Source of the DNA: an uncultured Alphaproteobacteria bacterium
Lineage (GTDB): Bacteria > Pseudomonadota > Alphaproteobacteria > Rs-D84
Length of the DNA stretch: 64,000 nt
Assembly (NCBI GenBank): GCA_949156565.1
Contig: CASCZI010000001.1
Location: 33,908-97,907 of the forward strand
Direction of reading: 5' to 3'
The notes under the pieces are model-generated. The model was not told the DNA's origin, made no database searches, and saw only the letters and a list, made by a program, of their open reading frames with translations. A program made the position numbers and the translations under genes. This document shows, one piece after another, positions 28,331 through 54,927 of the stretch (position 1 is the first letter of the stretch; every line of letters starts with the position of its first letter).

Positions 28331-28356
28331 AAAAACGGGCACATTGCCCGTTTTTT
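28331..28356. terminator. Bidirectional terminator
   Basis: AAAAACGGGCA-cat-TGCCCGTTTTTT. Confidence 0.8.
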
Positions 28357-29212
28357 ATTTTAATTCAAAGACGCACATCATATAGGGGGATGAATACAGG
28401 GGGGAATCCGGAATATTTGACACGTTGGTTTCGTTTTTATTGACGAACCAATTGCCGTCGGTTGGTGCGGTTGATATGGTCCACGACTGGTACGCGGCGT
28501 TGTTGGTATCGACGAAATGTTGAAACAGACTGTTTCCGTGAATGCTGTGGTAACCGACCGAATGGTCAAAGACGGCGATAAATGCACTGGCGTTACCGAC
28601 GCCGCCGGCAATTGAATCAATCGGGGTATCGCGTCCGTCGGAATAACTGTATTGTGTTGCGAATAAATAAGTTCCCGGCCCCAGTGTGCCGTTGGCGCAT
28701 GCCGCGCGCGCATCGTTCAGGGTTTCGGGGTTATGCCAGTCGGCAAAGACGCCACCGGGCGATTGTTCCCGGCAACACGACACCATGCGCCATTGGCTGA
28801 TATCTGTGGCGGGAATGTATTTTTTAACATCATCCAGGTTCATAAACGTATTAACAGGTGCGCCGGCCGGACGTGCGCCGTCCGCCGTTTCATTGGCGCC
28901 GGGGCATCCAATGGCGCCATAGGTGCATGCCGCGCGATGCATCCCGCCCGTACAATAATGTCCCAGACCACAGTCTGTGCACGCGGATAATCCATCCACA
29001 GAATACGTCCCCGGGGCGCAGTTCTGGGCCAGCCATTGGTTCCCAACATGTAATGCCCCGGCCGGGGCATTCCCGGCATTCAGGCTGCCATAGTACACCC
29101 CATCGGCCAACCCAATAGCCAGGGCGGGTATGGTCCGACGTACGGTATCCAAACGAATACTGGTATTTTCATAATGCAATGCCGCACCCAACCCGTCGTT
29201 TGGATTAGGCAT
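28355..29212 (-). CDS. Cys-rich protein with shared N-terminal module (locus A)
   Basis: Starts MPNP at the second repeat copy; CAPGTYS..C..CGLGHYCTGG repeats; no signal peptide seen. Confidence 0.7.
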   Translation of the reverse strand: MPNPNDGLGAALHYENTSIRLDTVRRTIPALAIGLADGVYYGSLNAGNAPAGALHVGNQWLAQNCAPGTYSVDGLSACTDCGLGHYCTGGMHRAACTYGAIGCPGANETADGARPAGAPVNTFMNLDDVKKYIPATDISQWRMVSCCREQSPGGVFADWHNPETLNDARAACANGTLGPGTYLFATQYSYSDGRDTPIDSIAGGVGNASAFIAVFDHSVGYHSIHGNSLFQHFVDTNNAAYQSWTISTAPTDGNWFVNKNETNVSNIPDSPLYSSPYMMCVFELK

Positions 29213-29351
29213 ATTTGGAAATGTGAAAAAGTGCGGATTTTTGCGTTTTTTATTTTGGGAATTTTGTCGATCCCAAACGACCGTTTGGATTAGGCATAGT
29301 GTCATAACCCCTAACCCCAGGAATTGTACCACGTTGCGGGGATTTGTGCAA
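29197..29351 (-). promoter_or_regulatory. Cassette leader A: promoter, 17-bp direct repeats, uORF
   Basis: TTGCAC(29346-51)-17-TACAAT(29323-28); CGTTTGGATTAGGCATA at 29197-29213 and 29282-29298; uORF MPNPNGRLGSTKFPK (29250-29297). Confidence 0.7.
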
Positions 29352-29401
29352 TGATAAAAATTGTCCTTTATTCATTGGTCCTGGGGGCGTATAATGGGAA
29401 C

Positions 29402-29881
29402 ATGACACGTATATTGGGAATTGATCCAGGGTTATTACATACCGGATGGGCTGTGATTGACAGCCAGGGCAACACGCGCAGGTATATTGCCAGTGGCGTG
29501 ATACTGCCGTCCGTGAAACAGGAAATGGCGGCACGTTTGGTTGACATCTTTCGCGGGGTGGACGCGGTGTGTGAAACATATTCGCCCGATGCACTTAGCA
29601 TTGAAATTATTTTCGTGAACCAAAATGCAAAAACGTCGCTGGCCCTGGGCCAGGCGCGGGCATCCGCCATCGTGGCGGCGGCCAACCGGGATATTCCGGT
29701 TTTTGAGTATGAACCGAACAAGATTAAAAAGGCCCTGACGGCCGCCGGTCATGCGGACAAAGATGCGGTAACCAAAATGGTACGCATGCTGTTGCCTGGG
29801 GCCAATCCCCATTCCCCGGACGAGGCGGATGCCATCGCCATCGCGTTGGCGCACAGCAATATGATGCGGTTAAATTATTAA
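29402..29881 (+). CDS. ruvC: Holliday junction resolvase RuvC
   Basis: ILGIDPG, LGQARA, EYEP..IKK, DEADAIAIA. Confidence 0.95.
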   Translation: MTRILGIDPGLLHTGWAVIDSQGNTRRYIASGVILPSVKQEMAARLVDIFRGVDAVCETYSPDALSIEIIFVNQNAKTSLALGQARASAIVAAANRDIPVFEYEPNKIKKALTAAGHADKDAVTKMVRMLLPGANPHSPDEADAIAIALAHSNMMRLNY

Positions 29882-38816: not shown

Positions 38817-39725
38817 TTAATTCTGGTCTGGGGACGCAAAGCATGTCGCATCATAGTAAAATGTTCCCCGTTCGTCATGAACCAATGTCGTGTCGTTTTT
38901 CGGCATAAAGCATTTGTCTTTGGTCTTATTATCCCCCAATTTAGATGTGCCTTGGTGCGTGACATCATCCTTGTCTTTGAAATTGGGACATATTGTGCAT
39001 TTATCGCACCCACCCTGGGGATCCCCGTAATACCCCGCGATACACCGATATTCATATTCACTGGGCACCCATTCACATTTTTCACGATTGCATGTATAAT
39101 CTTTGATACGCCGTTCACATACAGATCCCGTCACGGCCGAAAATTTATCATCGGGCTTTTCTTGGCCGTTACAATTCTCGTCACATTGCAATGCACACGC
39201 GGTGTATTGAGACACCATGCTCCATGTGCATGCATGACTTGCTTGATTAAATATATTTCTGTTGCACCCAACGGGTATATCTGATACAGAATTTGGTACA
39301 GCTTTGGTGACTAATTTATAATTTTTATCCGCATCACATTCTGTGGCATAATCCAAAACCATATGTATCCGATACAAAGAACAAGAATTGCCCGAACCGC
39401 CACCCGGTTCTAATCCCGGCGGGTTCGAAGATGAACCTTCTTGCTTATAACTATAGACATATAACCGACTAATACTCTTGTTCCCATTTTTATCAACCTT
39501 GGCCCCGACGGTTTCATCAATCAGGCGAATATCATATTTTGATAATGTTGTATCACCCGGGTCTTTGTAACTTTGAGTCCATTCACAATAAAGACTTGGG
39601 TCATCACTGCCCGGCCGATATATTGGTGTATGCGCCATAACAGGCGCCGTCATCATTATGGCGATCAATTTTATGACATTTTTCATTTGTCCCCCCCCGA
39701 TAAAACCACCCTTTGGATTAGGCAT
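38817..39725 (-). CDS. Cys-rich secreted protein (locus B)
   Basis: MPNP start at 39725 or MKNV start at 39686 with signal-like peptide; YRCIAGYYG..C..CP; C-terminal HDERGTFYYDATC. Confidence 0.75.
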   Translation of the reverse strand: MPNPKGGFIGGGQMKNVIKLIAIMMTAPVMAHTPIYRPGSDDPSLYCEWTQSYKDPGDTTLSKYDIRLIDETVGAKVDKNGNKSISRLYVYSYKQEGSSSNPPGLEPGGGSGNSCSLYRIHMVLDYATECDADKNYKLVTKAVPNSVSDIPVGCNRNIFNQASHACTWSMVSQYTACALQCDENCNGQEKPDDKFSAVTGSVCERRIKDYTCNREKCEWVPSEYEYRCIAGYYGDPQGGCDKCTICPNFKDKDDVTHQGTSKLGDNKTKDKCFMPKNDTTLVHDERGTFYYDATCFASPDQN

Positions 39726-39865
39726 AGTTTTTATTTTATCAAACCCCGGATTTCTGGGATTTTTTTGTTGTCCCACTATGCCTAATCCAAAGGGTGGTTT
39801 AGATTAGGCATAGTCAAATAACACTTTTACCCAGGAATTATACCCGTTTGCATGGATTTTGGCAA
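39703..39865 (-). promoter_or_regulatory. Cassette leader B: promoter and three motif copies including a 26-bp inverted repeat
   Basis: TTGCCA(39860-65)-17-TATAAT(39837-42); IR 39703-39728/39775-39800; uORF MPNLNHPLD (39782-39811). Confidence 0.75.
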
Positions 39866-39927
39866 GTGACAAATCCCATCATTTATGATATAATTCCCCC
39901 AAGAAAATATGTATAAAAAGGCAACGC

Positions 39928-40830
39928 ATGCAATTATCGATTAGCATTGGTTTTTTCGGCGATCAACACCCAAGTCGTGATTACGGCATCGACTTTTTTG
40001 ATTTGCCCGATATCCTGAAACAGTCTGGATTTGACGCAGTGGAATATTTTCCATCTGTGTCGGGTTTTTCAACCGATCCCCGTTATTTACGGCGAATGAT
40101 GCGCCGCGCGGGTTTATTTTTTTACAGTGGTCATTTACCAATGGTTGGCGGACAATTATCGTTTGACCGTGAAACATACCGGACGCGCCTATGCTATCTA
40201 AAGCAATGGATTAAATATTTTGCGCGTCTGGGGATTCGTGTGGCGGTTGTACACCCGGACGAAGGACCATTTTCCATGGCCGAACATCCCGATCGGATGG
40301 ATCTGTGTGTGCGATGGGCGCACGATTTGGCACGGTATGCCCGACGGTTTGGCATGAAAATTGCAGTGGAAACCACATGGATGCGCGGATCATTGTTTGC
40401 ATATCATAAAAATTTGATTTATTTTCGTGATCATATTCGCGCGAAAAATCTGGGGTTTTGTTTTGATACCGGACATGCCTATGGGTCCGAAAGCCCTGAT
40501 GCCCGGCGCGATCCGGAAAAAAACTTTTATAAAACATGGGACATTGTTAAAAATCATGTGGTGGCATTTCATCTGCATAACACCTATGAATGCTGTGATT
40601 ATCATAACCCTTTTGATATGGGCGGGATTGATTTCCGACGTTTTTTCCGTATGGTCAAAGAAATGAAGTTTGATTTTCCCATGACCATTGAAATGAACCC
40701 GACCAAGCCCATGAAACATAATGCACGCACCGATACCAAGGATTGGTCCCCGTCCCCATGCAATGCGAACATTGAACGCGCATTGCGGGCCACGGCAAAA
40801 ATGTTTCATACATTTTACGATCCAGCCTAA
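39928..40830 (+). CDS. Sugar phosphate isomerase/epimerase (TIM barrel)
   Basis: GFDAVE, VVHP, IAVE, CFDTGH, FHLHN, DYH, TIE metal-binding pattern. Confidence 0.8.
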   Translation: MQLSISIGFFGDQHPSRDYGIDFFDLPDILKQSGFDAVEYFPSVSGFSTDPRYLRRMMRRAGLFFYSGHLPMVGGQLSFDRETYRTRLCYLKQWIKYFARLGIRVAVVHPDEGPFSMAEHPDRMDLCVRWAHDLARYARRFGMKIAVETTWMRGSLFAYHKNLIYFRDHIRAKNLGFCFDTGHAYGSESPDARRDPEKNFYKTWDIVKNHVVAFHLHNTYECCDYHNPFDMGGIDFRRFFRMVKEMKFDFPMTIEMNPTKPMKHNARTDTKDWSPSPCNANIERALRATAKMFHTFYDPA

Positions 40831-53964: not shown

Positions 53965-54723
53965 TTATGGCACCAGATGGTATACCGTGTCCGACATGCG
54001 GATATTAATGGCACCGGTCGCGGTCCCCGGCGCCATATTGCCGTAACAAACCCGATCCCCAACGCGTACATGCACGGCCGGACTTGTCGTCCGCACCGCC
54101 CACAGGGGGACCACCGCATCCCCTGCACGCAGGCTGGTTATCCCGGCACCACAAACCCCGATACATTCATCCACCGACGCGGCCGTGGTGGTGCGCGTCG
54201 ATGTCCCGGCCGGACAAGATCCGCGCCGGATATCATCGGCCCCGGAATAATATCCGTAACCCACCGGAAAACACTTTGGATTGTTTACCATCGCCGCATG
54301 CGACCAATCCCAATAGTTGCCGTTTTCATTGCAATTGACACACCACGTGCCGGCGGGGCAATCATACACCGATATCATACAGTGGGTGGCGCTATTTGTT
54401 TCGATATACCCAGCCCCATCATACCCACAAGAAAAAATAAACGTTCCATAATTCCAATGGGCACGGCAACCCGCAACAGATCGATGGATACCATCCTCTG
54501 ACCAATAACTATATCCTGTCAAATGTTGGGCATCATAATCAGTCGACGGACAATAATGAATGGTATCATCCCCCGGACAGTAAAAGCCCCCCTCGTCCCA
54601 ATTACAGACCGTACACACCCCGTTGTTCAGATAATAGCCGGGATCGCATGTTGCGGCACGCACCGACGTGGTGATCAGAATAGCCACCATCAGCGCGCAA
54701 AACCCGACGGTTTTTTTAGGCAT
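53965..54723 (-). CDS. Cys-rich secreted protein with shared C-terminal module (locus D)
   Basis: Signal peptide MPKKTVGFCALMVAILITTSVRA; CDPGYY, GFYCPG, CPAGT repeats; ends TSPAVHVRVGDRVCYGNM...INIRMSDTVYHL. Confidence 0.8.
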   Translation of the reverse strand: MPKKTVGFCALMVAILITTSVRAATCDPGYYLNNGVCTVCNWDEGGFYCPGDDTIHYCPSTDYDAQHLTGYSYWSEDGIHRSVAGCRAHWNYGTFIFSCGYDGAGYIETNSATHCMISVYDCPAGTWCVNCNENGNYWDWSHAAMVNNPKCFPVGYGYYSGADDIRRGSCPAGTSTRTTTAASVDECIGVCGAGITSLRAGDAVVPLWAVRTTSPAVHVRVGDRVCYGNMAPGTATGAINIRMSDTVYHLVP

Positions 54724-54862
54724 AGTTGGGGGGAAAATTTGTCGCAGAAATCTGGGATTTTTTGTTTGTCTGAGACCGCTCAAAAAAACGTCCCTTTGGA
54801 TTAGGCATAGTCAAATCACGCCCAACCCCAGGAATTATACCCATTTGCACGATTTTTTACAA
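54716..54862 (-). promoter_or_regulatory. Cassette leader D: promoter, direct repeats, uORF
   Basis: TTGTAA(54857-62)-17-TATAAT(54834-39); ACTATGCCTAA at 54801-54811 and 54716-54726; 30-aa uORF 54716-54808. Confidence 0.75.
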
Positions 54863-54927
54863 GGGGAAAATTTTGGGGGGGACACGAAACGGGTTCGCCG
54901 CCCCCGGGGCACATGTGTGATCTTAAA

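Follow-up and report, generated by a model that had tools for sequence, protein, structure and literature searches.

A candidate family of very short DNA-inversion switches ahead of secreted-protein genes in an uncultured gut alphaproteobacterium

Locus B is a cluster of short repeats within a 64,000-nucleotide stretch of DNA (the window) from an uncultured Alphaproteobacteria bacterium (GTDB lineage Rs-D84; assembly GCA_949156565.1, contig CASCZI010000001.1, positions 33,908 to 97,907 of the forward strand). It is probably one of a genome-wide set of small DNA-inversion, or phase-variation, switches located between a constitutive promoter and the genes of secreted proteins. The layout of Locus B recurs in a family of modules throughout the host genome. 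The spacer at the centre of these modules occurs in both orientations across sister loci, and at one such locus within the assembly itself, and it carries sequence elements that are specific to one strand. An earlier, sequence-only reading of the stretch had proposed an attenuator-like RNA switch, an invertible segment or a recombination scar at this position.

The repeats of Locus B sit in a 241-bp gap separating two divergent genes. From the promoter on the minus strand, the order is core a, inverted core b, a 46-bp spacer, core c, a run of eight G residues and the ATG at 39686, the three cores being direct, inverted and direct. The motif on that strand is ACTATGCCTAATC, and each of its three copies contains an ATG. 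Core a (39798-39814, with its 13-nt core at 39814-39802 and its ATG at 39811-39809) combines with inverted core b into a 40-bp left site (39775-39814) that has a 14-bp centre and whose RNA would make a 17-bp hairpin. On either side of the spacer (39729-39774) lie cores b and c, each within one arm of a perfect 26-bp inverted repeat. The spacer is the candidate invertible payload and has near-identical counterparts lying both ways round at sister loci. A repeat scan recovers the geometry that the sequence-only reading had described: arm c (39703-39728, which includes core c) and arm b (39775-39800) are 26 nt long, 100% complementary and 46 nt apart, and the further copy at 39798-39814 is a direct repeat of 17 nt with 94% identity to 39712-39728. 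The middle arm can pair with this further copy as well (39766-39791 with 39798-39823; 26 nt, 81%).

The 26-mer of Locus B, with up to three mismatches, occurs four times in the window, against 0.00 occurrences expected from shuffles, and the 14-mer GGATTAGGCATAGT, with up to two mismatches, occurs six times against 0.33 expected, a count that none of 100 shuffles reaches. Because these counts are far above those of shuffled sequence, the repeats are not due to chance. Nor are they a fold-back artefact of assembly, a possibility that the earlier reading had raised. The stretch is held, always as assembled contigs, by sequencing runs from mouse-gut, rat, manure and faeces metagenomes; four of these runs were compared, and in all four the same arms and spacer are present in contigs. 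The artefact is further excluded by 15 more complete modules with an intact middle core and by the independent assemblies of other species.

The module promoter (39837-39865, minus strand) is of the sigma-70 type, with TTGCCA and TATAAT separated by 17 nt and 11 of 12 consensus positions matched, and is directed toward the minus-strand gene. That gene, the one predicted to be switched (38817-39686), encodes a protein of 289 amino acids with a signal-peptide-like N-terminus. Its start codon is likely the ATG at 39686, judging from the sequence around it: this ATG lies outside the stem formed by the arms, begins the signal peptide and is preceded at a distance of 4 nt by the Shine-Dalgarno-like G8 run (39691-39698, C8 on the plus strand). 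Sister genes of the same subfamily also have a G-rich run (G5-G6) ahead of the start codon. If the G8 run grew or shrank, the distance between Shine-Dalgarno sequence and start would change, as would the reading frame linking the core ATG to the main ATG, and slipped-strand variation at 39691-39698 is possible. The 289-residue protein is about 30% identical to a protein at the end of contig C8. It matches no Pfam family, an atlas search gave no usable match, and there is no orthologue at E = 1e-8 in five assemblies that bear the motif.

The host genome (1,071,069 bases in 10 contigs, 95.8% complete) has 45 copies of the 14-mer core with at most one mismatch, against none for a control pattern. 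It contains 24 complete modules of common build, Locus B being one: a promoter block, a leader of about 20 nt, the 40-bp left site, a 46-bp spacer, and core c at the 5' end of the gene. The centre of the left site, between core a and inverted core b, ranges from 14 to 18 bp and the arms of sister modules from 21 to 26 bp. Cores a and c are always 85-86 nt apart, and the promoter block is conserved at all complete modules with assembled upstream DNA. Sixteen of the 24 keep the middle core; the eight that have lost it cannot flip. Two sister modules lie in the window, both on the minus strand and both locked because the middle core has been lost. Locus A (29202-29362) has the promoter, core a at 29300-29288 and core c at 29215-29202, with its gene at 28355-29212; Locus C (54715-54873) has the promoter, core a at 54811-54799 and core c near 54726, and its gene (53965-54723) encodes a secreted, cysteine-rich protein.

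Most genes behind the modules encode secreted proteins of about 250 amino acids that lack a Pfam family, and many of these are cysteine-rich. A gene of a different type, for a family-2 glycosyltransferase (PF00535, E = 2.5e-28), is found among C6:43620 and C5:67380; in the same pair, one module gene has a weak MptE-like match (E = 1.1e-4) that falls below the cut-off. Besides the complete modules there are several fragments at contig ends, and two modules, C3:122193 and C4:3685, in which the promoter and a single core are joined straight to the gene. Behind C4:3685 there is only a 56-amino-acid open reading frame (ORF).

The 16 modules that retain the middle core divide evenly by spacer orientation, eight each way. 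The spacer of Locus B agrees with that of C4:47285 at 45 of 46 positions when read forwards, and with that of C2:86544 at 43 of 46 positions as the reverse complement, compared with 21 forwards. At C6:83086 and C6:84679, two almost identical genes in tandem, the spacers face opposite ways (41 of 46 positions as the reverse complement, 25 forwards). The start of contig C10, taken as its reverse complement, and the start of contig C5 have exactly 55 nt in common, comprising leader and left site, and then diverge; the 31 nt of the C10 branch after this fork are the exact reverse complement of the C5 spacer. One sister locus is thus present both ways round in the data behind the assembly. Seven of the eight modules without a middle core have their spacers in a single orientation, and the eighth is Locus A, whose spacer has diverged so that its orientation can be labelled only with mismatches. 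The invertible segment that the sequence-only reading listed among its options is supported by the opposite spacers at sister loci and by the C10/C5 fork, and flipping is predicted for Locus B itself.

The content of the spacers was surveyed at 20 triplet loci, 15 from the host genome and five from other assemblies, and two kinds of directional element are found. A GC hairpin followed by a T-run is sense to the gene at four loci and antisense at four. A Shine-Dalgarno-like run with an ATG, GTG or TTG 4-9 nt later is sense at five and antisense at four. Three of the 20 loci have neither kind, and none has both. The spacer of Locus B is of the first kind, with the terminator-like hairpin CCCGGATTTCTGGG and the T-run ATTTTTTT at 39745-39766 on the plus strand, antisense to the gene. 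The same element is sense at the sister loci C2:86544, C1:29085 and C4:49989; at the first two, the sense hairpins fold in silico with -9.7 and -10.9 kcal/mol and are followed by U7 or U6. In another species the hairpin has a different sequence, and the T-run is again confined to one strand, with examples both ways round (L056 and L068 versus L073). In the start-site subfamily, we read the spacer start codon as being in frame with the gene at all five sense loci. The payload, then, varies between spacer subfamilies, and the chassis is constant.

Some spacers have further features. Those of C1:170586 and C5:21867 contain TTGTCG and TAATAT 17 nt apart (8/12 matches), ending 7 nt before the core ATG when facing the gene, and such a promoter-like site could yield a leaderless transcript. 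A promoter inside the spacer was rejected as a payload: the 8/12 matches are weak, are present in some spacers only and are not general. The right core has an A-run of seven residues in the host genome (for example, at C1:170586) and of five or six in another assembly (L060, L086, L095). By our reading, with the shorter run the core ATG and the signal peptide are in different frames, and at L095 a GTG in the spacer is in frame in place of that ATG.

A simple scheme can be proposed for the switch. In the orientation seen in the window, the hairpin is antisense and transcription would read through into the gene; because the terminator faces away from the gene, transcripts would reach it, and Locus B is presumed to be ON. 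After inversion, the hairpin and U-run would be placed in the mRNA before core c and transcription would stop (OFF), as is predicted for C2:86544 and C1:29085. The terminator is expected to work in this sense direction. In the second spacer subfamily, a Shine-Dalgarno-like run and an in-frame start codon would take the place of the terminator. The RNA hairpins formed by cores a and b or by cores b and c may add a translational effect.

Inversion of this sort would be frequent and enzyme-driven. The tyrosine recombinases of the host genome (PF00589) comprise three full genes and one fragment, and there are three serine recombinase genes (PF00239) as well. We infer that the C9 serine recombinase (210 amino acids; PF00239, E = 3.9e-31) is the most likely catalyst, acting across many loci in the manner of a master invertase. 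Orthologues with 76-88% identity are present in all five of the motif-bearing assemblies. The C8 tyrosine integrase, by comparison, has a close orthologue in just one of the five, and the other two full tyrosine recombinases are, by our assignment, of XerC and XerD size. Five of 18 relatives from the same genus have an orthologue of the C9 recombinase at 76% identity or more, and these include G015 and G017 (79%).

The same two relatives stand out in the distribution of the core. The exact 13-mer is absent from all 30 relatives searched; a looser core pattern gives 23 hits in G017 and 13 in G015, with 0-3 in the remainder and 0-2 in controls. In G017, the core is altered in both arms together. 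Further afield, a 20-mer of the core identifies 59 loci in eight other public assemblies, which are titled Alphaproteobacteria, 'Rickettsiales bacterium' and similar. Most of these loci are built in the same way, and many of them are in locked form; some with intact repeats are at contig ends. The unique flanks of Locus B gave no matches in public metagenome contigs.

Several observations weigh against programmed inversion at Locus B. The terminator function of the spacer hairpin is a prediction, and the hairpin at Locus B is imperfect, with -7.9 kcal/mol in the sense direction compared with -13.5 at C4:47285. In the start-site subfamily, locked copies lack a sense Shine-Dalgarno-plus-start element, which clouds the ON/OFF logic. 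The C10/C5 fork could be explained by two strains in one sample. A marker base beside the core moves with the spacer in the pair C5:18 and C10:69 and does not in the pair C6:83086 and C6:84679; this inconsistency hints at variable crossover points, which fit homologous or template-switch events better. The link to the C9 recombinase is one of co-occurrence among kin and amounts to no proof, and three relatives (G003, G013 and G014) have an orthologue at 76-79% identity and no recognisable core family. The centres of the arms at Locus B are 72 bp apart, with a 46-bp spacer between the arms, which is awkward for recombinase synapsis. To our knowledge, every other inverton has a longer spacer than this one, and the 195 bp given for the Clostridioides difficile cwpV switch in excerpts of PMC2784873 is much longer than the 46-bp payload.

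In the four metagenomic runs compared, contigs end at the arms, since the sister loci have these words in common, and the orientation of Locus B therefore cannot be read from them. In run X5, one 873-nt contig has 39801-40200 linked to a reversed 39703-39800, with the spacer inverted, and then continues into the 5' end of the gene at the start of contig C9 and not into the Locus B gene. The reversed segment in another strain speaks for inversion; the contig as a whole shows a rearrangement at the module between strains, which is not simple flipping. The promoter side of Locus B is linked in this run to the C9-start gene, and modules seem to swap promoters and genes.

Some of these points also favour an account in which flips are real and unprogrammed, arising from template switching at the hairpin or from homologous exchange between the many sister modules, with the triplet a scar or by-product and the spacer orientation of little regulatory meaning. 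A very short spacer suits template switching, and so does the marker base, which follows the spacer in only one of the two pairs of loci; the X5 contig, with a promoter joined to a different gene, indicates exchange between modules; and the tie between the candidate recombinase and the sites is one of co-occurrence. The single-core modules C3:122193 and C4:3685, moreover, resemble deletions between the direct cores a and c. We nonetheless think this account rather unlikely. It is at odds with a directional payload that comes in two kinds, with a T-run that stays one-stranded even in another species where the hairpin is different, and with the even split of orientations (8 versus 8). Modules without the middle core are nearly all one way round, arms change together across subfamilies and species, and the core family is accompanied by one orthologous serine recombinase, all of which speaks against it.

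A second alternative dispenses with DNA rearrangement. In an RNA-only leader or attenuator, translation of a short upstream ORF would select one of two hairpins, a/b covering the start of that ORF and b/c covering the downstream ATG, and the orientation of the DNA would be irrelevant. The ORF concerned starts in core a and has nine codons followed by a TAG in the middle core (39782-39811, minus strand); it is read from the sequence, its translation is putative, and equivalent short ORFs are present at sister loci. The two mutually exclusive pairings described in the sequence-only reading do exist in silico: core a with the middle copy forms a 17-bp hairpin (-22.5 kcal/mol), and the middle copy with core c forms a 26-bp stem (-55.2 kcal/mol for the region). 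The whole-leader minimum-energy fold uses the b/c stem, and a prefix ending before core c folds a/b. Both hairpins are strong and exclusive, with a/b forming first in the prefix fold, and since the stop of the upstream ORF is inside arm b, a ribosome there would open b/c. These pairings, however, follow automatically from the repeat layout of the DNA. The attenuator-like switch of the earlier reading stands as far as the exclusive hairpins go, and any regulatory role for them is putative.

This alternative is improbable on other grounds as well. It leaves unexplained the reverse-complement loops at sister loci and the C10/C5 fork, and eight modules do without the middle copy altogether. The earlier reading had the 26-bp stem hide the start codon of the gene; the ATG that the stem encloses, in arm c (39725-39723), is in frame and 13 codons upstream of the likely start at 39686, which lies with its G-rich run outside the stem. 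At C2:131741, an arm mismatch places A opposite C in the sense RNA, which is no G-U wobble. The leader of Locus B shows no sign of a sensing element, as the nine-codon ORF has no evident regulatory run and no Rfam match is above threshold; the seven Rfam matches are all to generic hairpin (miRNA-precursor) models, far below their gathering scores. An extended upstream ORF coupled to the gene was considered and rejected as a general rule, since by our reading the ORF reaches a stop overlapping the gene ATG in only three or four of the seven locked modules of the MPKKTVGF gene family.

A miniature inverted-repeat transposable element, with 26-bp terminal inverted repeats around 46 bp and inserted ahead of genes, would account for the small size and many copies, with the 13-bp direct repeats of cores a and c readable as a target duplication, and yet it is very improbable and was rejected because the ends are neither constant nor independent of site: the arms differ by subfamily and always match the first codons of the adjoining gene, so that the 'ends' belong to the locus and not to an element, each of the 24 complete modules is flanked by the common promoter on one side and by a gene's 5' end on the other (isolated core near-matches elsewhere were left unexamined), and searches with PF00589 and PF00239, which did not extend to DDE families, gave no transposase link beyond the recombinases listed above.

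The gene divergent from that of Locus B (39928-40830, plus strand) encodes an AP_endonuc_2 TIM-barrel protein, identified by its Pfam match, and has its own promoter outside the switch (39866-39894, plus strand), with GTGACA and TATAAT separated by 17 nt and a TG. The -35 hexamers of this promoter and of the switch promoter abut back to back at 39865-39866. Matches to the AP-endonuclease-like protein are present in two of the five motif-bearing assemblies, and neither has the switch upstream. Elsewhere in the window, a ruvC-like gene has its start 6 nt downstream of a TATAAT hexamer (29380-29405) and may give a leaderless mRNA. Ten of the 20 contig ends of the host genome fall in modules, and many of these can be put down to repeats longer than the assembler word size. 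Other contig ends are in unrelated repeats, such as the tandem units of about 27 nt at the end of C7 and the start of C8, and a repeated coding-like stretch is found at the start of C3 and the end of C6. Modules break short-read assemblies in this way, and inverton finders may overlook them, depending on size limits.

If the DNA-inversion reading is correct, a more specific proposal can be made, which we hold tentatively: it may be that one master serine invertase runs about 30 ultra-short cassettes (46-bp payload, 98 bp with arms) with interchangeable payloads, toggling each secreted-protein gene independently. With the third core, the left site would be a palindrome, which would aid the synapsis of sites that are far closer than normal DNA looping allows. 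The third core would also permit deletion between cores a and c, locking genes ON, and exchange between modules, by which strains would come to differ in their pairing of promoter and gene, as is suggested by the X5 contig. Programmed flipping would make this the most compact invertible switch known to us, at a density of roughly one per 40-70 kb of a reduced genome. Each cell would then have a combinatorial repertoire of secreted or surface proteins and of at least one glycosyltransferase, and the mechanistic question would be how sites 72 bp apart come together.

Other bacteria control surface structures through multiple invertible loci. In Bacteroides fragilis, Coyne et al. (2003) reportedly found one serine recombinase, Mpi, to act on many dispersed invertible promoters of surface structures; the Mpi elements carry the promoter and are a few hundred bp long. 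The present family is similar in that many dispersed switches share one repeat consensus (45 core copies, 24 complete modules) in a gut bacterium. It differs in that the promoter is fixed outside the arms and the flipped piece is a terminator, or a ribosome-binding site and start codon. The mpl (P35) lipoproteins of Mycoplasma penetrans have a per-gene invertible promoter, in an element of about 135 bp with 12-bp repeats, and tyrosine recombinases. There, as is proposed here, a small genome gives each surface-protein gene its own small switch, with combinatorial ON/OFF states, although the promoter itself is not inverted in the modules described here. Classical attenuators, such as the trp and erm leaders, combine a short upstream ORF with mutually exclusive leader hairpins; unlike these, Locus B has an upstream ORF without regulatory codons, stems that are long exact repeats and a loop that is inverted in the DNA.

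Invertible DNA that touches the 5' end of a gene is also a feature of the 'partial intergenic' or gene-altering invertons, which, in the available portions of the sources, are mostly long, shufflon-like and swap coding segments (10.1101/2023.03.11.532203; PMC9881135). In the present family, it is the second spacer subfamily that would bring a ribosome-binding site and start codon to the gene. Excerpts of the literature on invertons, terminator switches and start-site inversions contain nothing of this size or layout, and survey supplements might list such loci. The nearest analogy in design is to cwpV of C. difficile, which is inverted by RecV. As given in the same excerpts of PMC2784873, the cwpV promoter is upstream of an invertible region of 195 bp flanked by imperfect 21-bp repeats, and only the OFF transcript folds into an intrinsic terminator. 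Locus B likewise has its promoter outside the invertible DNA (39865-39837, with the spacer at 39729-39774), repeats of about 21-26 bp across the family, an orientation-specific terminator in the leader transcript, here predicted in silico, and a surface or secreted product (PMC2784873, in part). The cwpV switch, by contrast, is a single locus of 195 bp that uses a tyrosine recombinase (PMC2784873, in part); here there are 16 flippable modules of 46 bp in 1.07 Mb with a predicted function, a third direct core, and a small serine recombinase as the candidate enzyme. If the predicted switching is real, terminator-type control of the kind seen in cwpV would extend to another phylum and to a many-locus design.

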